DNA of 41,161 nt. Source: an uncultured Dehalococcoidaceae bacterium. Its GTDB lineage: Bacteria; Chloroflexota; Dehalococcoidia; Dehalococcoidales; RBG-16-60-22. Both the position numbers and the translations under genes were made by a program. The DNA lies in contig CAZPAS010000002.1 in the NCBI GenBank assembly GCA_964584575.1, forward strand, positions 5,826 through 46,986, read 5' to 3'. Positions 10,846-41,049 of the stretch are shown piece after piece (the stretch's first letter is position 1; each line of letters starts with the position of its first letter). The notes under the pieces were generated by a model, which searched no databases, was not told where the DNA came from, and saw only the letters and a list, made by a program, of their open reading frames with translations.

Positions 10846-11595
10846 ATGTCCACTCCACGAGATTACTCCGCGTTTGATAAATTAAATCTGGAAAGGAAGC
10901 CCGTAGGCGTCAAGTTTACGGCACTCAAACCGGAAGGAATTAACCGGATACGGGAGAAAAGGTTCCTCTGCGAGATGTTCAAGGAGGCACAGGAAGGAGA
11001 CCCCTTTTACGTCCAGGAAGAGGATTTCTTATGCGTCGAGCCGGTGATATTGGGAATGAAAGACCCGGAAACGGCGCTCGTCAGCGGGGCGGCAGGTGGA
11101 GGTGCGGGGCTTTTTAAAGAGCCGCGCGCCAACAGTAAACTCTACCGGTACGTTCCCAGGATGCTCAAGGGTTCGGTCAAGTATGTCGCCTTTTCCCCCA
11201 TCGACAAGTTGACCTTCGACCCGGATGTCGTGATTATAACCGCCAACGTAAGTCAGGCGAAGTCTATCTTAAGGTCGGACTGCTATACCTCCGGGGAAGG
11301 CTGGTCATGCCACGGAACGCCCGTGATGGCCTGCTCCTGGCTCTATGTCTATCCGGTCGTCACCGGCAAAATGAATTTCACGATTACCGGACTCAGCCTG
11401 GGCATGGAAGCAATCAACGTGCAGATACCGGAGGGACTTTTCCTCATTTCCATTCCCTGGAACATGATGCCGACGGTACTGGAAAACCTGCAGGACCCCA
11501 ATCTGTACCGCAGCTGGCGTTCCTCGGGGAGAGAGGAACACTCTAAAAAATGGGAGAACCGGCTGAACCAGCTACACCAGGAACTGTCCGGTTAA
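10846..11595 (+). CDS. DUF169 family protein, tandem copy 1
   Basis: DYSAFDKLNLERKPVGVKF, FDPDVVIIT, SQA and CSWLYVYP motifs. GAAGGAGG SD. Confidence 0.8.
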   Translation: MSTPRDYSAFDKLNLERKPVGVKFTALKPEGINRIREKRFLCEMFKEAQEGDPFYVQEEDFLCVEPVILGMKDPETALVSGAAGGGAGLFKEPRANSKLYRYVPRMLKGSVKYVAFSPIDKLTFDPDVVIITANVSQAKSILRSDCYTSGEGWSCHGTPVMACSWLYVYPVVTGKMNFTITGLSLGMEAINVQIPEGLFLISIPWNMMPTVLENLQDPNLYRSWRSSGREEHSKKWENRLNQLHQELSG

Positions 11596-11607
11596 CAGGA
11601 GGTTGAT

Positions 11608-12351
11608 ATGCAGCGCGATTATTCCGTTTTTGATAAATTCAAGTTCGAAAGAAAGCCCGTGGGCATCAAGTTTCTACTGAATAAACCGGAAGGCATCAAG
11701 CAACTGGATAAAGGGCTAACCTTTTGCGAGATGCTCCGGGAAGCCCAGAAATCGGAGCCTTTTTACGCCAAAAAAGAGAATTTCACCTGCATGGGACCGC
11801 GACTGCTGGGCATGAGCGACCTGGAACCGATTGCCGAGAGCGGAGAAATCGGCGCTTCGGACGGAATCTACCAGGAAGCCCGGGCCAACCGGAGAATCTA
11901 CCAGCACATCCCCAAGCTGGCCAAGGATACGGTCAGATACGTCGCCTATTCTCCGGTGGACAAGCTTACCTTCGAACCGGATGTCGTGGTTTTCACAGCC
12001 AGCGTGAGTCAGGCGGAGGTTCTCCTGCGGGGACTGGCATATGCCACCGGCAGGATAATGACCACCAGAACCACCCCGGCGGTGGTATGCTCCTGGTTGT
12101 TCGTCTATCCCTTCGTCAGCGGCGAAGCCAACTACTCGATTACCGGACTCGGCTACGGCATGAAAGCCAGGAATGTATTCCCGGAAGGACTGATCCTGAT
12201 TTCCGTACCCTACGACCTTCTCCCCGGGCTGACGGAAAATCTGGGCGAGATGAAATGGGAGCTTCCCGCCTATGCTCTCAAAGACGATGAGAGAAACGAC
12301 TATTTTAAGAAAGCCATGGAAGCGATAATGAAACGCTATATGGATAGCTGA
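11608..12351 (+). CDS. DUF169 family protein, tandem copy 2
   Basis: DYSVFDKFKFERKPVGIKF, FEPDVVVFT and CSWLFVYP motifs. AGGAGG SD 12 nt after the previous stop. Confidence 0.8.
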   Translation: MQRDYSVFDKFKFERKPVGIKFLLNKPEGIKQLDKGLTFCEMLREAQKSEPFYAKKENFTCMGPRLLGMSDLEPIAESGEIGASDGIYQEARANRRIYQHIPKLAKDTVRYVAYSPVDKLTFEPDVVVFTASVSQAEVLLRGLAYATGRIMTTRTTPAVVCSWLFVYPFVSGEANYSITGLGYGMKARNVFPEGLILISVPYDLLPGLTENLGEMKWELPAYALKDDERNDYFKKAMEAIMKRYMDS

Positions 12352-12375
12352 TATAGATATCACAGGGAGGTTGCT

Positions 12376-13134
12376 ATGAGAAAGTACAGGACAGATTTAT
12401 CCGTCTTCAGCAAGCTTGACCTGGAATATCCACCGGTGGGCGTCAAGTTCCTGGTTACCCGACCGGAAGGCATGGAGCAGCTGGATAAAGCCATGCCTCT
12501 GTGTGCGATGGTTAAGGAAGCGCAGGATAGAGACAAGCCTTTCTATATCACCAGCGAAAACGAGAACTGCGGCGGCAGGTCGACGCTGGGGTTCGAAGGC
12601 CCTTCTCCGATTGCGGAAAGCGGGCAGGTGGGGATAAAGTACGGTATCTTCCAGGAGGCGCGCGCCAACGGCAAGATGAACCAGCAGGCCCCGAAGTTCC
12701 CCATGGGCACGGTCAACTACGTGGCTTTCGCCGGGCTGGACAAGCTCGACTTCGAGCCCGACCTCCTGTTCATCGTTGCGCCTACCAGTCAGGCGGAAAT
12801 AGTACTGCGGGCGGCGAGCTATTCCACGGGAGAAATCTGGTCGAGCAAGATATCGATGGTGGGGGCATGCGCCTGGATGTTCACCTATCCGTTCCAGAGC
12901 GGCACTATCAACTACGTACCCACGGGACTTACCTTTGGCATGAAGTCATGGAAGGTCTACACGGAGGGATTCATTATATTGTCCATCCCGTATAACTGGC
13001 TGCCGGTCATTGTCCAGAACATGAACCAGATGGAATGGGTGCTGCCTTCGTACATGGATACGTCGGAGGAATTCCTCGCCCGGCATAAAAAAGTGATGGG
13101 AGAACTCGCCAAAGAGTTCATGAATCCCGAATAA
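12376..13134 (+). CDS. DUF169 family protein, tandem copy 3
   Basis: DLSVFSKLDLEYPPVGVKF, FEPDLLFIV and CAWMFTYP motifs. GGGAGG SD. Confidence 0.8.
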   Translation: MRKYRTDLSVFSKLDLEYPPVGVKFLVTRPEGMEQLDKAMPLCAMVKEAQDRDKPFYITSENENCGGRSTLGFEGPSPIAESGQVGIKYGIFQEARANGKMNQQAPKFPMGTVNYVAFAGLDKLDFEPDLLFIVAPTSQAEIVLRAASYSTGEIWSSKISMVGACAWMFTYPFQSGTINYVPTGLTFGMKSWKVYTEGFIILSIPYNWLPVIVQNMNQMEWVLPSYMDTSEEFLARHKKVMGELAKEFMNPE

Positions 13135-13192: not shown

Positions 13193-15538
13193 ATGGACAG
13201 TAAAAGCCTGGAAATGCTGGAGTTTCCCCGGATACGGGAAATAATAGCCGGCTATACCTCGTTCTCGACGAGCCGGGTGCTTGCCGACGAACTGCGGCCG
13301 CTGCAGGACTACGAGGCTATTTCCCGTCTCCTCAATCAGACGGCAGAGGCGCGCTCGCTGCTCGGACTCGATGCCGGATTCTCCATCGGAAACGTAACGG
13401 ACGTCCGCGACAAGGCGCGCCTGGCGGCGCTGGAAGGCATCCTGGAACCGCTCAGCCTCCTGGAAATCCAGCAGACCCTGGCCGCCCTGCACGAACTCAG
13501 GCGTTATCTCAAGAGCATCTCGGAAGACTTTCCACTACTCTGGGATATCGGCGAAGGCATTACCGAACTGCGCCAGATTGAAAAAGACATCGCCGGTTGC
13601 CTTGACCCGGCAGGAGAAGTGCTGGACACGGCATCACCCGCCCTGGCGGATATACGCCGCCAGCTGCGGGACACCCGCGGGCAGATACTGGAAAAACTGG
13701 AATCCATCGTAAGGTCGCCGCGGGGCAATCGCATCCTCCAGGAAGATATCATCACCGAGCGGGAGGGCCGTTACGTCCTCCTCGTCAAGATGGAGTCCCG
13801 CCACGAAATCAAGGGAATCGTCCACGATATATCCAACACCGGCGCCACGGTCTTCATGGAGCCCACGTCCACGGTGGGACTGGGCAACGCCATACGGGAA
13901 CTGGTCATCGAGGAAAGGCGCGAGACGGAGCGAATCCTGCGTATCCTCAGCGCCGAGGTCGGGGCGCACAGCGAAGATATCTGTCAGAGCGTAGAACTGG
14001 CGGCGGAAATCGACCTGATATTCGCCAAGGCGCGGTACGCCCGGCGGATAAAGGCGGCGGAACCGGAGATAATCAAGCCGGACGCGCCGAAGAAATCCGG
14101 CTACCTCAAACTGGTGGACGCGCGCCACCCGCTGCTCGGGGACAAAGCCGTGCCGTTCTCGCTGGAAATGGGACATGACTTTTCCATAATAGTAATCACG
14201 GGACCCAATACCGGCGGCAAGACGGTGACGCTGAAAACAATCGGGCTGCTCAGCCTGATGGCGCAGGCGGGCATACCGATTCCCGCCTCGGCAAAAAGTC
14301 ACCTGCCGCTGTTCGACGGCGTTTACGCGGATATCGGCGACGAACAGAGCATCGAGCAGACGCTCTCCACCTTCAGCTGGCACATGGGTAACGTCGTGCG
14401 CATCGTCAGGGGGGCAACCGGGAAGAGCCTGGTGCTCCTCGACGAACTGGGGACAAGCACCGACCCCGCCGAAGGCTCGGCGCTGGCGCAGGCGGTATTG
14501 AGGTACTTCCTCGACCGGGGTACGCTGACGGTCGCCACCACGCATTACAGCGACCTCAAGGCATTCGCCCACACCACCAGCGGACTGGAGAACGCCTCGC
14601 TGGAGTTCGACGCGGAGACACTCACCCCAACCTATCACCTGACGGTAGGGATACCGGGGGGCAGCAATGCTATGGCGACCGCCGCCCGCCTGGGCATACC
14701 GCCGGAAATCATCGATAACGCCCGCAGCACGCTTTCCAAAGGCAGCCAGGAACTCGAAGAAATACTCGCCGACCTCATGGCGGAGAAGCAGAAAATAACC
14801 TCGCTGGAAAGCGAACTGAAGAAAGAGCGGGACGGCTACGCGCGACTCAACAGCGAATTGAACAGCGAGCTGGAACGGCTCAAGTCCGAAGAACAAATCG
14901 CTTTACGGGAGGCGCGGGACACGATTGTCCGCGAGGCGGCGGAACTGCACCGCGAAATCCGGCAGGCAGCCGCGGAACTGCGTAAGGAAAAGTCCGCCGC
15001 CAGCACCGAGGAGGCCAGGCGCACCCTATCGCGGGTACGCGAGCAGCTGGACGGCGAAACCTGGCAGCCCAGGGTGGGAAACATCCCGGAGGCGGACACG
15101 GGGAAGATAGAAGTCGGCGATACCGTGCGCGTCAGGGAAGCCGGCCTCACCGCCACGGTGCTTTCGATTTCGGAAGAAACAGGAGAAGTCGAGATACAGT
15201 CGGGCAGGACCAAGATGCGACTGGGGCTGGACGCCGTGGCGAAAACACAGCCGCAGGAAACGGTATCTCCGGCGGGAAGCCAGCCTGTCGCCAGACGCGT
15301 TCCGCTGGAACTCGACCTGCGCGGCAAGCGCGCCGATGAAGTAGAAACGGTGCTCGACAGCTATCTCAACGACGCGGCGCAGTCCAACCTCATGGAAGCA
15401 CGTATTATCCACGGCGTCGGCACGGGCACGGTGAGAAGCATCGTGCGGGAATTTCTCACCGGGCACCCGCTGGTCAAGTCTTACCGCGCCGCCACGCGCG
15501 ACGAAGGCGGCGAAGGCGCGACGGTCGTACGACTTTAG
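13193..15538 (+). CDS. mutS2: endonuclease MutS2 (MutS ATPase plus C-terminal Smr domain)
   Basis: 781 aa. Walker A GPNTGGKT, DELGTSTDP, a coiled-coil middle region, and Smr LDLRGKRADEV...IIHGVGTGTVRSIV. Confidence 0.95.
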   Translation: MDSKSLEMLEFPRIREIIAGYTSFSTSRVLADELRPLQDYEAISRLLNQTAEARSLLGLDAGFSIGNVTDVRDKARLAALEGILEPLSLLEIQQTLAALHELRRYLKSISEDFPLLWDIGEGITELRQIEKDIAGCLDPAGEVLDTASPALADIRRQLRDTRGQILEKLESIVRSPRGNRILQEDIITEREGRYVLLVKMESRHEIKGIVHDISNTGATVFMEPTSTVGLGNAIRELVIEERRETERILRILSAEVGAHSEDICQSVELAAEIDLIFAKARYARRIKAAEPEIIKPDAPKKSGYLKLVDARHPLLGDKAVPFSLEMGHDFSIIVITGPNTGGKTVTLKTIGLLSLMAQAGIPIPASAKSHLPLFDGVYADIGDEQSIEQTLSTFSWHMGNVVRIVRGATGKSLVLLDELGTSTDPAEGSALAQAVLRYFLDRGTLTVATTHYSDLKAFAHTTSGLENASLEFDAETLTPTYHLTVGIPGGSNAMATAARLGIPPEIIDNARSTLSKGSQELEEILADLMAEKQKITSLESELKKERDGYARLNSELNSELERLKSEEQIALREARDTIVREAAELHREIRQAAAELRKEKSAASTEEARRTLSRVREQLDGETWQPRVGNIPEADTGKIEVGDTVRVREAGLTATVLSISEETGEVEIQSGRTKMRLGLDAVAKTQPQETVSPAGSQPVARRVPLELDLRGKRADEVETVLDSYLNDAAQSNLMEARIIHGVGTGTVRSIVREFLTGHPLVKSYRAATRDEGGEGATVVRL

Positions 15539-15550
15539 CAGGAGATTGTT

Positions 15551-16303
15551 TTGTCTTTAGTATCCGGAAAACTGACCTTGAATCGTGTCAGAATAATGGC
15601 CTTCCTTGACGAGCTCGCCGGCACTCCCGTAAACGAAGCTGTAACTCTCTATATACCACCCAATACCTCTGTCGAAGAACTCGGCAATTCTTTTAAAAAA
15701 ATATCCGAACCGACGAATGTCATGGCAGAACTTACCAAGATTGCCGGGAGTAGCAAAACAGGCGCCGTTATCTTCTGGGGTAAAGAGCGTAAGCTCGCCG
15801 TCCTGCCGCCGTTCCCGATTACCGAGCGACAAATATACCTGTTCGTCGATACACAAGAGCTACGTTCGATAATCGAACATGACCGCCGGATTGCCCTGGT
15901 GCTGGTACGATTGGGCTCGTACGCGGTCGGAGTGTGCGAAGGCGAAAAAATGGTCGGCATCAAGGTCGGCACGGGACTCGTGCATGGACGCCACCATAAG
16001 GGCGGCTCGTCGGCGCACCGCTTCGAGCGTCACCGGGACAAGCAGATAGAATATTTCCTGACCCGCGTATGTCAGCGCAGCCGGGAACGAATCGAACCTT
16101 ATGTAAAGTCGCTGGACTACGTCGTCTACGGAGGCGCCCGCACCACCATACAGTTGCTCAAGAAACAGTGCTCATTTATCGGTCGACTGGAAACACCTGC
16201 CCTGCCGCCGCTTTACGATATACCGGAGCCACGACAGGCGGTGCTGGAAGACGCTGTGAAACGCGTGTGGTCGAGCACGGTCTACGAATGGCGGGAGGAC
16301 TAA
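15551..16303 (+). CDS. Vms1/ANKZF1-like (VLRF1, Actinobacteria/Chloroflexi type) eRF1-fold peptidyl-tRNA hydrolase homologue
   Basis: TTG start 6 nt after an AGGAG SD and 12 nt after the mutS2 stop. The central segment GLVHGRHHKGGSSAHRFERHRDKQIEYFL matches the KGGxSxxRFxRxR signature recalled for VLRF1 domains. Confidence 0.7.
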   Translation: MSLVSGKLTLNRVRIMAFLDELAGTPVNEAVTLYIPPNTSVEELGNSFKKISEPTNVMAELTKIAGSSKTGAVIFWGKERKLAVLPPFPITERQIYLFVDTQELRSIIEHDRRIALVLVRLGSYAVGVCEGEKMVGIKVGTGLVHGRHHKGGSSAHRFERHRDKQIEYFLTRVCQRSRERIEPYVKSLDYVVYGGARTTIQLLKKQCSFIGRLETPALPPLYDIPEPRQAVLEDAVKRVWSSTVYEWRED

Positions 16304-17001
16304 GAGGTTACGTTAATCAACTCCTTAAGTCGTTCAATCGCCGGCGGCATTACCTCGCCGATAGCCTCGGAAAAACGCAGATGGGCATTATCGTCGTACG
16401 GGGTCTCGCCCTGGTTGATGATGACCAGCTTCGCCCCCGCCTGCAAAGCCACCCGCGGCATGTCCGCCGCCGGATAGACCACCAGGCTGGAACCGACGAC
16501 GACAAAAAGGTCGCACTGCTGCGAATGCTCGTAAGATTCCGCCAGGTCCTTGGCGGGTAAAGACTGCCCGAAATCCACCACGGTGGACGCCAGCTTGCCG
16601 CCGCACAGCGGGCATTCCCGCTCGCCCTCCACCCTGTCCATCTTGAACTCGCACTCGGTGCAGCGCACCTTGGTCAGGTTGCCGTGGAGTTCCGCCAGCA
16701 GTTCCGGCCTGATGCCGGACTGCAGGTGCAGGTTGTCCACATTCTGGGAAATTAGAAAGGCAAGCTTGCCCAGTTCCTGAAGCTCGTGGATAGCCACGTG
16801 CCCGGCGTTGGGCTCGGCGGACGTAAAGTCCTGTTTGGGGGTGGAAAGCCCCTTGTCCCGGCGCGTCCAGAGTCCGTCCGGTCCGCGGAAGTCGCGCAGT
16901 CCGGATTCCGTGCTGATGCCGGCGCCGGTAAAGACCACCAGGTATTTCGACTCCAGCATCCATTGTGCCAAATCATTAATTCGCTGGTGTAAATCGGACA
17001 T
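16300..17001 (-). CDS. NAD-dependent protein deacylase (Sir2 family sirtuin)
   Basis: FTGAGISTESGLRDFRG, QNVDNLH, zinc ribbon CTEC...CPLCGG, VVVGSSLVVYPAA. The ATG at 17001 is preferred over the TTG at 17022. Confidence 0.9.
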   Translation of the reverse strand: MSDLHQRINDLAQWMLESKYLVVFTGAGISTESGLRDFRGPDGLWTRRDKGLSTPKQDFTSAEPNAGHVAIHELQELGKLAFLISQNVDNLHLQSGIRPELLAELHGNLTKVRCTECEFKMDRVEGERECPLCGGKLASTVVDFGQSLPAKDLAESYEHSQQCDLFVVVGSSLVVYPAADMPRVALQAGAKLVIINQGETPYDDNAHLRFSEAIGEVMPPAIERLKELINVTS

Positions 17002-17058
17002 GAGAAAATGGCTCCATATCAATAATATCGTGGGAATCAGGGCACGTCAATTGTAAGT

Positions 17059-17712: not shown

Positions 17713-19026
17713 CTAAAAGAATAGACTGCCGATTTGATATATCAGGGTGGCTACCACCCACCCCAGCACCAGCGTATAGGAAATGGTAAAGATTGTCCAC
17801 TTCCACGAGCCTGTCTCCTTCTTGATGGTACCCAGCGCCGCCACACAGGGAATATACAGTAAAATCATAGTCATAAAAGCAAAGGCCACCAGCGGTGTCC
17901 AGCCGAGTTGCGCCGCGATGGCATTCCCAATCCCGCCGGATGCCCCGGCACCGGCCAGCAGCGTGCCGAACGCTCCGACGACCGCTTCCTTGGCAAGCAC
18001 CCCGAACACCAGCGCTACCGCCGACTCCCATTGTCCGAATCCCGCCGTGGAAAATATGGGTGCAACAGCCCTGCCGATATGTTCCAGTACATCAAAATAG
18101 TTAAGCATCCAGATGAGCACCACTGCCCCGAAAATCAGGGTCCCGGCGCGCGACAGGAAAGCCCAGCCGCGCTCCCACATATGCGCCAGTACCGTCACCA
18201 CCGTAGGCAGGCGGTACGGGGGCAGTTCCATGACAAAGTGCCCGCTCTCGCCGGAAACCAGCTTCTTGCGGAAGAGCCATGCCAGCAGAATCGCCAGAAT
18301 GACGCCGATGGCGTACATGGAAAAGACCACCAGCCCCTGGTAAGCCGTAAAGAATGCAGCAGCTAACAGGGCATAGACCGGCAACTTGGCACCACACGAC
18401 ATCAGGGGAGTAACCAGTATAGTTACCAGCCTGTCCCGCGGGTTTTCAATAGTGCGGCTGGACATGACGGCCGGTACGGTGCAGCCAAAGCCCAGCATCA
18501 GCGTTACGAAGGAGCGACCGTGCAGGCCGATTCTGTGCATCAGGCGGTCCATGACGAATGCCGCCCGCGAAAGGTAACCGGTATCTTCCAGGATAGAAAG
18601 GGCGATATACAGCAGGAATATCACGGGTACAAAGGACAACACCGCCCCCACCCCACCGATGATACCATCGGATACCAGCGAACTCAGCCAGGCGGGTGAT
18701 ATCCCGGAAACCTGCGCCGCCAGCCAGTCCAGTCCCTGGTTAATCCAGTTTATCAGAGGTCCGGATACAACGAAGGTAAACTGAAATACTCCGTAGAGAA
18801 TCAGTAGAAAAATGGGTATACCCAGCCAGCGATTAAGGATAATACGGTCGATTTTGTCCGTAGCCGTTTCCTTCTCGACGGCGGGTTTCCTGAGGACATC
18901 CCGCATGAGACCGCTGATGAACCCGTAGCGGGCATCGGCAATCAGTGTCTCGGCGTCATCACCGTGAACTTTCCTCAGGTGCTCCAGGCTGGCGTCTTTT
19001 ACCTGTAATATCTCCGCGCTATCCAA
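17713..19026 (-). CDS. feoB: ferrous iron transporter FeoB, membrane (gate/nucleoside-recognition) portion encoded as a separate ORF
   Basis: 437 aa, polytopic. IADARYGFISG linker followed by FeoB-type TM repeats. TTG start 1 nt after the G-domain ORF stop. Confidence 0.9.
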   Translation of the reverse strand: MDSAEILQVKDASLEHLRKVHGDDAETLIADARYGFISGLMRDVLRKPAVEKETATDKIDRIILNRWLGIPIFLLILYGVFQFTFVVSGPLINWINQGLDWLAAQVSGISPAWLSSLVSDGIIGGVGAVLSFVPVIFLLYIALSILEDTGYLSRAAFVMDRLMHRIGLHGRSFVTLMLGFGCTVPAVMSSRTIENPRDRLVTILVTPLMSCGAKLPVYALLAAAFFTAYQGLVVFSMYAIGVILAILLAWLFRKKLVSGESGHFVMELPPYRLPTVVTVLAHMWERGWAFLSRAGTLIFGAVVLIWMLNYFDVLEHIGRAVAPIFSTAGFGQWESAVALVFGVLAKEAVVGAFGTLLAGAGASGGIGNAIAAQLGWTPLVAFAFMTMILLYIPCVAALGTIKKETGSWKWTIFTISYTLVLGWVVATLIYQIGSLFF

Positions 19027-19027
19027 T

Positions 19028-19705
19028 TCAAGCCTTCTTGATCTTCTCGATTATTTCACGGTCGTCTTCCAGTAGCTTGATGCCCAGCCACCTTGGCGAA
19101 TAGCCCTTCGCCAGCGGACTGCCGGAGACAGCCTCCTCCATCTTAGCAAGCTCCGCCTCCACGTCATGACCGTACTGTATACTGATTCCACTTACCGCGA
19201 TATCCCCCTCCGCAACACTGATAATAGTCTCCAGCAGCTTATCGGTCCCCTGATTCTTCGCGGCAATCATAGGCACCACCGGCGAACCCAGCAGATTCGA
19301 TAGTCCTTCAGTGTCGATTTGATATCCCCGCGACTCGGCGACATCCATCATATTGAGGGCGATTACCAGGGGTGCCTTCATCTCGAGGAACTGCACGGTG
19401 AGGTAGCAGTTGCGTTCCAGGTTGGAAGCATCGACGACATCCACGACCACATCGGGCTTTTCGTCGACCACGTAGTCGCGCGCGATAACCTCGTCCAGCG
19501 AGTAAGCCGTCAGGCTGTAAACACCGGGCAGGTCGACCACGCGGATACGGCGCCCTTTATAATTGCAGGTGCCTTCTTTTTTCTCCACCGTCACCCCGGG
19601 CCAGTTACCCACGTGCTGCCGGGCGCCGGTAAGATTATTGAATACGGTGGTCTTGCCGGAATTGGGATTTCCAGCCAGGGCGATAGTAATTTCTTTCTTG
19701 CTCAT
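19028..19705 (-). CDS. feoB: FeoB N-terminal GTPase domain encoded as a separate ORF
   Basis: G1 GNPNSGKTT, G3 DLPG, G4 NMMD. 225 aa, ending in TGA. Confidence 0.9.
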   Translation of the reverse strand: MSKKEITIALAGNPNSGKTTVFNNLTGARQHVGNWPGVTVEKKEGTCNYKGRRIRVVDLPGVYSLTAYSLDEVIARDYVVDEKPDVVVDVVDASNLERNCYLTVQFLEMKAPLVIALNMMDVAESRGYQIDTEGLSNLLGSPVVPMIAAKNQGTDKLLETIISVAEGDIAVSGISIQYGHDVEAELAKMEEAVSGSPLAKGYSPRWLGIKLLEDDREIIEKIKKA

Positions 19706-39450: not shown

Positions 39451-39515
39451 TTTTTGCCAGCTTGTTCCCCTTGGTGACCTTCAGAAAATGCCTCCACGAA
39501 ATTCATGTATACTCA

Positions 39516-39544
39516 TTGACATTACCATAGCTAATGTCTATCAT
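39516..39544 (+). promoter_or_regulatory. promoter TTGACA-17 nt-TATCAT upstream of rdhA
   Basis: Consensus -35 with 17-nt spacing, read directly. Implies a leader of roughly 115 nt. Confidence 0.5.
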
Positions 39545-39666
39545 GTTGAAAACGCCAGCACAAAGTTTCATCAAGTGCGTAGAGGCATGGTGATTTACCT
39601 CATATCCGAACGAACGGGAAATCCCTTAATCAAGCGGTTGGTACCAGCGGAAACAGAAAGGAGCGC

Positions 39667-41049
39667 ATGGTGATGAAGTATCACGGCCCAGAGCGTAAAA
39701 GCATGACATTTGGTGAGGAGAGAGGCATTGACGGCGGTGGTTCAGGCCCCTCGAGATACCATGACCTTGATGATTTTAAAGCATCACCGGCAGCGGAGAG
39801 GAAATTACCGTGGTGGATAAAGGAAGTTGATAAACCGACCGTAGAAATTGACTGGGGTCGAATGAAGCGCTTTGATTCCAGTAATATCATGTTTGTTAAG
39901 GGTTTTGCTGAAGCTATCGGTCCCGATAATGCCATGAAATTGGGGGGACAAGCGGTAGAGTACGCAACCAAATCCATATTAGAAAACGAGCCGGGGTACT
40001 CCCTGAGGGAAAAGGCATTGGTCGCCGGCGGCTGGCTGACATCGCTCTTAACCACGGAACATGCGTTCCTCGGTCCCGAACTAATGGTTCCTTTCGGCAT
40101 GTCAGGCATACCTGACGACCTTAAATACCCTCGCTATGAGGGTACGCCCGAGGAAAATACACGAATGGTCCGGGCTGCAGCAAAACTTTACGGAGCCGAT
40201 TCCGTCGGTGTTGTAGAACTCGATGAGAATACCCGAAAACTGATTTATGAATTCGACGGCTGGGATGGGAAAAAGTGGGAATTCGAGGATGTAGACAAAG
40301 CGTACGAAACGGAAAAGAAGAAGGTGATACCTTATAAAGCGAAGTGGGTGATTGTATACACTATCCGCATGTCCGCGGCGTCCCTGGCTACCGCACCAAC
40401 AGCGCTGGCTACCGCCGCCTCATCGCTGGCCTATTCTGAAGGTACTTCCGTCCAGCTTCGCCTCCAGCAGTTTATACGCAGACTCGGCTATCAGTGTCTT
40501 GCCGACGGCAACATGGGTACTTCAGGTAACAGTCCCGGCTTTGGCGTACTTGCCGGGCTGGGTGAGTTAAGTCGTTTGAACAGGATGCTTTCCCCCAGGT
40601 GGGGGCCCTTCGTGCGGGTATACAAGGTGATTACCGATTTGCCACTGGCTCCTACTAAACCAATAGATGCCGGGATATTTCGCTTTTGCCGTGATTGTAA
40701 GAAGTGTGCCGAGGTCTGTCCGAGCAATGCTCTCAGCATGGATAAAGAACCATCTTGGGAGATCCAAGGACACTGGAACAACGCCGGCGTCAGGACTTAC
40801 TACGAGAAAGCCCCTAATTGTTTTTCACATTGGCTGAGTATAGGCGGTCATGATTGCGGTATCTGCCTCGCTGCCTGTCCCTTTTCCAAGCTGGATAAAT
40901 CGTTCATACACATACACAACATGGTGAGGGAAATTGTGTCTACTACCCCTGTATTTAATAAAATGTTCAGAAAGCTGGACACAGACCAAGGTTACGGAAT
41001 GTCGCCTGAATCATGGTGGGACACTGACCTGCCTCCGCACGGAATATAA
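39667..41049 (+). CDS. rdhA: reductive dehalogenase homologue (RdhA-like corrinoid/Fe-S protein) lacking a Tat signal
   Basis: YHDLDDF...KLPWWIKEVDKPTVEIDWGRMKRFD N-terminal region, and Fe-S motifs CRDCKKCAEVCP and C..(11)..CGICLAACP. Confidence 0.85.
   Translation: MVMKYHGPERKSMTFGEERGIDGGGSGPSRYHDLDDFKASPAAERKLPWWIKEVDKPTVEIDWGRMKRFDSSNIMFVKGFAEAIGPDNAMKLGGQAVEYATKSILENEPGYSLREKALVAGGWLTSLLTTEHAFLGPELMVPFGMSGIPDDLKYPRYEGTPEENTRMVRAAAKLYGADSVGVVELDENTRKLIYEFDGWDGKKWEFEDVDKAYETEKKKVIPYKAKWVIVYTIRMSAASLATAPTALATAASSLAYSEGTSVQLRLQQFIRRLGYQCLADGNMGTSGNSPGFGVLAGLGELSRLNRMLSPRWGPFVRVYKVITDLPLAPTKPIDAGIFRFCRDCKKCAEVCPSNALSMDKEPSWEIQGHWNNAGVRTYYEKAPNCFSHWLSIGGHDCGICLAACPFSKLDKSFIHIHNMVREIVSTTPVFNKMFRKLDTDQGYGMSPESWWDTDLPPHGI

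Follow-up and report, generated by a model that had tools for sequence, protein, structure and literature searches.

The stretch of DNA analyzed here (the window), 41,161 nucleotides (nt) of contig CAZPAS010000002.1 from an uncultured Dehalococcoidales bacterium, carries mutS2 and, directly downstream on the same strand, a gene for a 250-amino-acid (aa) protein of the acVLRF1 family with the fold of the release factor eRF1. The features of the two genes and of their junction are as follows.

13193-15538, + strand: mutS2, 781 aa (TIGR01069, 838 bits against a cut-off of 400).
14201-14224, + strand: Walker A motif GPNTGGKT of MutS2, from the translation.
14429-14452, + strand: Walker B motif LVLLDELG of MutS2, located in the translation.
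15113-15232, + strand: KOW-like (SH3) MSSS domain of MutS2, aa 641-680 (PF20297, 6.2e-08).
15311-15535, + strand: Smr domain of MutS2, aa 707-781 (Pfam Smr, 6e-23).
15311-15325, + strand: Smr motif LDLRG (DLR instead of DxH), by motif location.
15410-15427, + strand: Smr motif HGVGTG, by motif location.
15536-15538, + strand: TAG stop codon of mutS2, from the sequence.
15540-15544, + strand: Shine-Dalgarno AGGAG, 6 nt before the TTG and within the 12-nt spacer; TAGCAGGAGATTGTTTTG.
15551-16303, + strand: gene for the acVLRF1-family protein (Pfam PF18859), eRF1-like fold, 250 aa, TTG start, "HxRH" sub-clade.
15551-15850, + strand: N-terminal domain, aa 1-100, an apparent shortened remnant of the eRF1/aRF1 N domain, from the profile alignment.
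15974-16045, + strand: loop and helix start GLVHGRHHKGGSSAHRFERHRDKQ, aa 142-165, corresponding to the GGQ loop of eRF1, which reaches the peptidyl-transferase center, by gapless alignment to eRF1 HGRGGQSALRFARLR.
16001-16015, + strand: GGSSA, aa 151-155, in a loop that reads HKGGSSAH.

The mutS2 product belongs to the MutS2 family (TIGR01069). Besides MSSS and Smr it matches MutS_V in Pfam (aa 333-515), with no Pfam match to MutS_I or MutS_II, and both of its Walker motifs are intact. In Bacillus subtilis MutS2, a Walker A-equivalent mutation abolishes disome splitting, E416 of Walker B (to which LVLLDELG of the window corresponds) is required for activity, the ribosomal protein bound by the KOW domain is uS10, and a protein with a DLR/HGxG Smr domain splits collided ribosomes and leaves the mRNA uncut; disomes are split in vitro without an A-site factor (PMC10897456). 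A terminator scan found no terminator-like site between the two genes, and the promoter and terminator scans yielded nothing further. The TTG start is preferred over an ATG at 15596 because of the Shine-Dalgarno spacing, the conservation of residues 1-15 and a confidently modeled strand at residues 3-10. A first-pass annotation, made from the letters of the window alone, had proposed the mutS2 coordinates, GPNTGGKT, the Smr motifs and the stop at 15538, which translation, TIGR01069 and Pfam confirm, and a 250-aa open reading frame (ORF) 12 nt downstream behind AGGAG, which the sequence bears out. The closest relatives are Dehalococcoidales metagenome-assembled genomes (MAGs), with 84-86% identity in MutS2 and 80% in the 250-aa protein.

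The 250-aa protein matches Pfam PF18859 (acVLRF1) with an E value of 1.5e-28 and 100 bits against a cut-off of 27.1, over profile positions 1-129 of 130, and is thus a member of that family; weaker Pfam matches are to baeRF_family10 (47 bits) and eRF1_2. Its AlphaFold2 model, built on 29 homologues (mean pLDDT 93.6, pTM 0.87), consists of a domain of about 100 residues, strands at 113-141, a loop at 142-152 and a long helix at 153-187, and the chain ends at residue 250. Model and Foldseek alike reveal the M-type (RNase H-like) core of eRF1 without the C-terminal GTPase-binding domain, as in acVLRF1 proteins. In the Foldseek search of the PDB, eRF1/aRF1 chains ranked at the top (about 1e-10), followed by the bacterial hibernation factor Balon (5e-8), Pelota (2e-5) and Vms1 (6r84_R, 7.5e-5), and a profile search of PDB sequences returned aRF1 (3agk, 2.8e-11). 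Membership of the acVLRF1 family and of the eRF1 fold, both of which the first-pass annotation had expected from a profile and structure check, is therefore established.

In the profile alignment, residues 7-184 of the query correspond to residues 9-213 of aRF1. The N-domain part (3agk residues 9-127) covers the LYLPP and TGxVxF segments, and about 25 stop-codon-reading residues are gone. Since the alignment runs through the N-terminal region, this part resembles an aRF1 N domain in shortened form and not an unrelated extension. Burroughs and Aravind (2019), who defined acVLRF-1 and placed it in the Vms1-like clade, described the N-terminal region as a distinctive extension that replaced the stop-codon-binding domain. 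The first-pass annotation had called the protein a Vms1-like VLRF1 homologue. The family assignment in this claim stands; the direct likeness to Vms1 is slight, as the eukaryotic VLRF1 model PF18826 has no match to the protein at E below 0.01, the loop Gln is missing, the chain has 250 aa without extra domains and the structural likeness is weak. The label "Vms1-like" reflects the published classification more than direct similarity, and aRF1/eRF1 are closer. Nor is the protein a member of the Balon/baeRF-1 group, whose eRF1-like proteins have three domains, are brought to the ribosome by EF-Tu and are often encoded beside a hibernation-factor gene, as it has two parts only and its match to baeRF_family10 is weaker than that to acVLRF1. 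Among phage records there were no relatives of the 250-aa protein, and the matches in plasmid records were confined to aRF1 genes of haloarchaea and a single actinobacterial chromosome deposited as a plasmid.

In the loop that would face the peptidyl-transferase center, eRF1 HGRGGQSALRFARLR and GRHHKGGSSAHRFERHR of the window align in the profile with zero gaps. Ser153 thus stands at the classical GGQ Gln position, Ala155 at the Gln position of the family motif GGxSQ and Lys150 directly before GG. Canonical members of the family have GGxSQ, a motif that the window protein lacks, and the first-pass annotation had been right that no Gln can be placed in GGSSAH. GGSSA is identical across 20 close homologues. 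Across 108 diverse family members there is no variation at G151, G152, S154 and R157, and conservation is at least 90% at F158, R160 and R162, which confirms the signature KGGxSxxRFxRxR named in the first-pass annotation; the conserved arginines at the helix start, predicted to contact large-subunit rRNA, are those expected of an acVLRF1 protein. The segment K138-T171 has 34 residues in 256/256 homologues and is the best-conserved part of the protein (82% column identity in the window clade versus 60% for the whole protein). Burroughs and Aravind (2019) predicted the Gln of GGxSQ to be catalytic and equated its loss with inactivity, and they noted that inactive eRF1 relatives show decayed loops of variable length. 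By the latter criterion, a conserved loop of fixed length would mark an active and not a decayed member. The loss of Gln predicts the opposite, and so the two signals conflict by the criteria of the family-defining paper.

Three loop types occur in the sub-clade of the window: RQGGSS[A/S], with Gln just before GG, at 50 loci; KKGGSSQ, with Gln at the family position, at 41 loci; and [HK]KGGSS[A/S], the Gln-less type of the window, at 41 loci (41/133 assessable, about 30%). The two Gln positions are almost mutually exclusive (1 / 53 / 47 / 40; Fisher p 5e-12, not corrected for phylogeny), and the Gln state changed at least 19 times on a rough neighbor-joining tree. The pair of residues before GG (aa 149-150, 15995-16000) co-varies as RQ, HK or KK, and the tree suggests repeated RQ/HK switches among close relatives, each of two nucleotide changes, to which errors of the rough tree may contribute. 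Linkage to mutS2 is independent of loop type within the window clade. Close relatives with and without Gln share this linkage and conservation, which points to a single common activity independent of the Gln side chain. Shaw and Green (2007) reportedly found that side-chain substitutions at the release-factor Gln lower hydrolysis only modestly. According to structural work, the backbone amide at the Gln position accounts for catalysis by release factors (PMC6742477), and the eukaryotic relative ANKZF1 cleaves the CCA end of the tRNA and does not hydrolyze the ester bond (PMC7026593). With no Gln flanking GG, release by the window protein would need backbone-assisted hydrolysis or cutting of the tRNA acceptor end, and the loop may accordingly serve backbone-assisted hydrolysis, tRNA cleavage or a non-catalytic role.

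For the conservation of the pair, scans with alignments of individual sub-clades covered GTDB genomes (one for each species), metagenome contigs and contigs with exact matches, and MutS2 was located by tblastn. The sub-clade alignments proved effective; a scan of the genome collection with the single protein gave 3 close loci only, and the 108-sequence alignment was too diverse as a seed. In the "HxRH" clade of the window there were about 314 genome matches, and 147 unique loci were looked at, with labels nearly all of Dehalococcoidia or Chloroflexota type (one delta proteobacterium) and VLRF1 identities to the window from 73% down to about 38%. Among the loci with at least 1 kb of upstream sequence, counted as assessable, mutS2 lies directly upstream on the same strand in 73/73 close and 46/60 more distant cases, i.e., in 119/133 species loci (89%), a set in which VLRF1 identity drops to about 40%. 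The spacers have a median of about 30 nt and measure at most 100 nt in 94/106. Conservation does not extend to the outer flanks, where the largest group of homologues comprises 9/83 loci upstream of mutS2 and 38/101 downstream of VLRF1 (Sir2). As the pair is kept while its outer flanks vary, its conservation is not mere local synteny.

The opposite order, VLRF1 followed by mutS2 on the same strand, was found in 17/18 assessable metagenome loci of a distant clade (loops of the type KG[RK]H[HSA]AGGTSQ), and also on several Mb-scale contigs, with spacers of 40-118 nt. Sister groups of this clade with other loops are mostly unlinked. At two of the reverse-order loci a restriction-modification system or toxin-antitoxin genes have been inserted, and the pair remains on the same strand within about 3 kb. 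When 256 sequences are placed on a midpoint-rooted neighbor-joining tree, its deepest split separates the two linked arrangements, and unlinked clades lie between the two. Because an inversion cannot turn mutS2-VLRF1 into VLRF1-mutS2, the adjacency must have either arisen twice or survived rearrangement. Whichever its origin, the gene orders indicate that selection has kept mutS2 and VLRF1 together. The operon structure of the pair and its conservation in two gene orders are established, and the adjacency proposed from a single genome does extend beyond it.

Some individual loci deserve mention. The insert between VLRF1 and mutS2 encodes an N6/N4 methyltransferase and a BglII-type endonuclease at one reverse-order locus (L235, 7939-9431) and a zeta-toxin/AAA gene, a PIN-MazE pair and others at the second (L236, 7874-10352); the intergenic spacer of this clade seems to act as an insertion hot spot. 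One MAG (Zod_Metabat.1459) has two mutS2-VLRF1 pairs, on contigs JAFGHL010000050.1 (L173) and JAFGHL010000056.1 (L184), so that either the module is truly duplicated or the bin contains more than one strain. An "uncultured delta proteobacterium" MAG (CAVTZP010000005.1, L026) carries a Dehalococcoidia-type pair with 55% and 61% identity to the window proteins; this record is probably mislabeled or the contig mis-binned. In the window, a Sir2-family deacetylase gene (16300-17022, - strand) converges on the VLRF1 gene, with 3' ends overlapping by 4 nt. Sir2 is the only other neighbor conserved to some extent (42/80 close loci) and is lost in more distant relatives. Four DUF169 (COG2043) paralogues lie on the + strand, one at 46-789 and three in tandem within 10846-13134 directly upstream of mutS2; the tandem set is shared with at least one close relative (L002) and is not conserved clade-wide.

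The window itself holds no further gene of the known ribosome quality-control pathway: none of its 46 ORFs has a Pfam domain of the NFACT (RqcH), S4 (RqcP), Pth or SmpB type within these 41 kb, in agreement with the first-pass annotation, which had seen no rqcH- or rqcP-like gene. A tblastn search of 4.4 Mb of loci with an approximate B. subtilis RqcH query gave no match, as chance predicts. In a genome survey, MutS2 was present in 35/41 and RqcH in 26/41 Chloroflexota genomes (PMC11633108). Further survey figures for Chloroflexota put RqcH in about 26% of 1,306 GTDB genomes, with RqcP and YlmH essentially absent. By these figures, which apply to the phylum level only, many Chloroflexota have the splitter without the known tailing machinery.

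These results raise the possibility that mutS2 and the downstream gene form a two-gene rescue operon in which MutS2 splits stalled ribosomes and its partner then releases the nascent chain, a reading that we consider a little more probable than its contrary. With its KOW and Smr domains MutS2 would recognize collided ribosomes, and with ATP it would split the stalled ribosome, leaving a 50S subunit that still bears peptidyl-tRNA. The 250-aa aRF1/eRF1 relative, predicted to be co-transcribed, would bind the vacant A site and insert its GGSS loop and arginine-rich helix into the peptidyl-transferase center, and the nascent chain would be freed from the P-site tRNA so that subunit and tRNA become reusable. 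The 250-aa protein would then be a dedicated terminator of MutS2-initiated quality control, a role taken by Vms1/ANKZF1 in eukaryotes and by Pth in B. subtilis. That the 250-aa protein binds the ribosome and is active in release is what we infer here, as are the sequence of events and the chemistry. The first-pass annotation had proposed an operon of a splitter and a release enzyme; the pairing is upheld by the conserved adjacency, and because the family Gln is missing, "release enzyme" is a putative label.

A number of observations weigh against this reading. With NCBIfam NF041024 (acVLRF1) the protein scores 112.6 bits, under the cut-off of 125, and it has no Gln at the classical, the family-specific or the pre-GG position. 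The retained N-domain remnant could mean that the substrate is the 70S ribosome instead of the 50S subunit. Linkage also has its limits. In the window clade 14/133 loci are unlinked, and their neighbors are mixed (toxin-antitoxin, IS200-like and metabolic genes), so that the idea of an alternative conserved partner was rejected. In the clade with KNRH...GGSSQRRFERSRERLI, which had been taken for actinobacterial and proved to be SAR202-like Dehalococcoidia, mutS2 was found within 10 kb in 0/78 assessable loci with two MutS2 queries, and this clade includes many complete chromosomes. In Nonomuraea, an actinobacterial member with the loop GGWSQQRF, mutS2 is not nearby, which fits a survey that reports mutS2 and rqcH in none of 3,213 Actinobacteriota genomes (PMC11633108). 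The census of acVLRF1-mutS2 adjacency that the first-pass annotation had called for is thus positive in two sub-clades and negative in the SAR202-like clade and in Nonomuraea, and the family is not strictly MutS2-dependent. All pair-bearing genomes are uncultured MAGs of one class, and the literature searches turned up no experimental work on any acVLRF1 protein.

The distribution bears on the view that the two genes are not functionally coupled at all, their adjacency being inherited Dehalococcoidia gene order and the proteins acting independently, with MutS2 perhaps in DNA recombination as in older work. The restriction of the pair to one class, the unlinked loci inside and outside the window clade and the possession of the family by Actinobacteria without MutS2 speak for it. 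We nevertheless regard it as quite improbable, as the pair is present in 89% of loci versus 11-38% at most for each outer neighbor, its spacers are very short, the opposite order of the distant sub-clade cannot be produced by inversion, the pair stays together across inserted mobile genes and the ribosomal role of MutS2 is experimentally established. The 250-aa protein could be a non-catalytic A-site factor of the Dom34/Pelota or Balon kind that aids MutS2 in selection or splitting or protects subunits, while Pth, the known releasing enzyme of B. subtilis quality control, or another enzyme performs release. The lack of Gln beside GG in the window protein and in 41/133 clade loci, the view of the family authors that Gln loss means inactivity, and the significant structural matches to Balon and Pelota all fit such a factor. 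That the loop, variable and decayed in inactive eRF1 relatives, here keeps its length in 256/256 homologues together with GGSS and RFxRxR, and that Gln-bearing and Gln-less close relatives share linkage and conservation, makes it unlikely in our judgment; the hibernation version is down-weighted because the third domain of Balon is absent and no hibernation-factor gene lies nearby, no HPF/RaiA-type gene being among the conserved neighbors of VLRF1 loci.

The order of events might also be the reverse: the 250-aa protein, as an eRF1-like factor independent of the codon, would first act at the stalled 70S ribosome, and the emptied ribosome would afterwards be split by the ABC-type ATPase MutS2, as eRF1 or Pelota act with ABCE1 in archaea and eukaryotes. 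The alignment of the N-terminal 100 residues to the aRF1 N domain, which occupies the small-subunit A site, points in this direction, as do the best Foldseek matches, which are ribosome-bound eRF1 chains with about 260 aligned columns; Park et al. parallel MutS2 with ABCE1, and active with inactive eRF1-family members, and the conserved linkage is compatible with either order. The domain by which eRF1 and Pelota contact the GTPase and ABCE1 is absent, however, the N domain has lost its stop-codon-reading part, and B. subtilis MutS2 splits disomes in vitro without an A-site factor, so that we think release before splitting improbable. Some Chloroflexota could possess a minimal RqcH-free form of quality control, in which a MutS2 split is followed by operon-encoded, eRF1-derived release without alanine tailing and the Gln side chain is dispensable. 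The movement or loss of Gln under a conserved loop would then mean that the release chemistry has no need for that side chain. We put this forward tentatively, as possible but rather doubtful.

Of all steps in bacterial ribosome quality control, nascent-chain release is understood least. According to a 2024 study, bacteria have no known dedicated termination factor, and B. subtilis can use the general enzyme Pth to free alanine-tailed chains (PMC11317155). A release-factor-fold gene beside a splitter gene, in two orders and in well over a hundred species, is a concrete and clonable candidate for this step and may explain how the many bacteria with MutS2 but no RqcH bring the pathway to completion. 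This genomic context alone supports a ribosomal role of MutS2 outside the Firmicutes. The natural variants in which Gln is relocated or missing are material for probing what Gln contributes in eRF1/Vms1-type factors, and RqcH-free, Gln-independent release, if true, would bear directly on the hydrolase-versus-nuclease question for Vms1-type factors. Literature searches found no report of a link between acVLRF1 and MutS2, and on acVLRF1 only the family-defining paper of 2019; the MutS2 paper co-authored by the Burroughs/Aravind computational group has no gene-neighborhood analysis. The NCBI family cut-off leaves the whole mutS2-linked sub-clade labeled "hypothetical": close relatives are "hypothetical protein" in NCBI versus "acVLRF1 family peptidyl-tRNA hydrolase" for canonical members, presumably because the window-type proteins score under the NF041024 cut-off.

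Elsewhere in the window, FeoB is encoded by two abutting ORFs on the - strand (17713-19026 and 19028-19705) with a single stop between them, the first comprising the GTPase domain with one half of the cytosolic helical domain and the second the remaining half together with the membrane part. A natural split, a sequencing error and a pseudogene are all conceivable. Genes for FeoA, FeoC and an iron-dependent repressor lie beside it. At the end of the window is a gene for a reductive dehalogenase catalytic subunit (39488-41049, + strand) with Dehalogenase and 4Fe-4S domains and a 61-aa ORF just upstream, an arrangement typical of organohalide-respiring Dehalococcoidia.

Among known systems, ArfB resembles the 250-aa protein as a small stand-alone, codon-independent candidate for peptide release from stalled ribosomes. 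Its fold is unrelated, the GGQ domain of bacterial release factors being joined to a C-terminal tail for probing the mRNA channel. ArfB also has a genuine GGQ, and its targets are 70S ribosomes in which the mRNA channel is empty. Pelota/Dom34 and Balon are likewise A-site proteins with an eRF1 fold and no catalytic Gln, and Pelota partners an ABC-type ribosome-splitting ATPase, ABCE1; they differ in having three domains, GTPase delivery and poorly conserved loops, whereas the window protein has two parts and a strictly conserved loop. The best matches in both sequence and structure are to aRF1/eRF1, eRF1 GGQSALRFARLR aligning with GGSSAHRFERHR of the window without gaps. The Gln of GGQ is Ser here, however, the N domain is shortened and has lost its codon-reading part, and the C-terminal domain that binds eRF3/aEF1A is absent; since bacterial termination uses RF1 and RF2, the window protein cannot be the main terminator.

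With Vms1/ANKZF1 the protein shares an eRF1-derived fold, the absence of stop-codon reading, the published VLRF-1 clade and the proposed job of freeing the nascent chain from a large subunit made by a collision-triggered splitter. The direct resemblance is weak (Foldseek 7.5e-5 versus 1e-10 for eRF1), the Gln of GxuQ, the zinc finger, the ankyrin repeats, the VIM and the Cdc48 link are missing, and the partner here is MutS2 and not ubiquitin-dependent machinery. B. subtilis quality control, with MutS2, RqcH, RqcP/YlmH and Pth, has the same MutS2 architecture, including Walker A and B, KOW and the DLR/HGxG states of Smr. There a general enzyme, Pth, carries out release and no factor is encoded beside mutS2, and RqcH and S4-domain genes are not in the 41-kb window. 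The nearest relative is acVLRF-1 itself (PF18859, NF041024), known from the same phylum, with which the window protein shares a full-profile Pfam match, a short N-terminal region followed by an eRF1 M-type domain with no C-terminal domain, and the residues of GGxS and RFxRxR. It differs in falling under the NCBIfam cut-off, in the change of the GGxSQ Gln to Ala and in HxRH before GG. Burroughs and Aravind (2019) described the prokaryotic VLRF1 members as standalone and independent of other quality-control components, whereas the gene of the window is operonic with mutS2. The locus is a new combination of two known families and not a new kind of protein, a real and conserved two-gene module whose function in ribosome rescue we infer.

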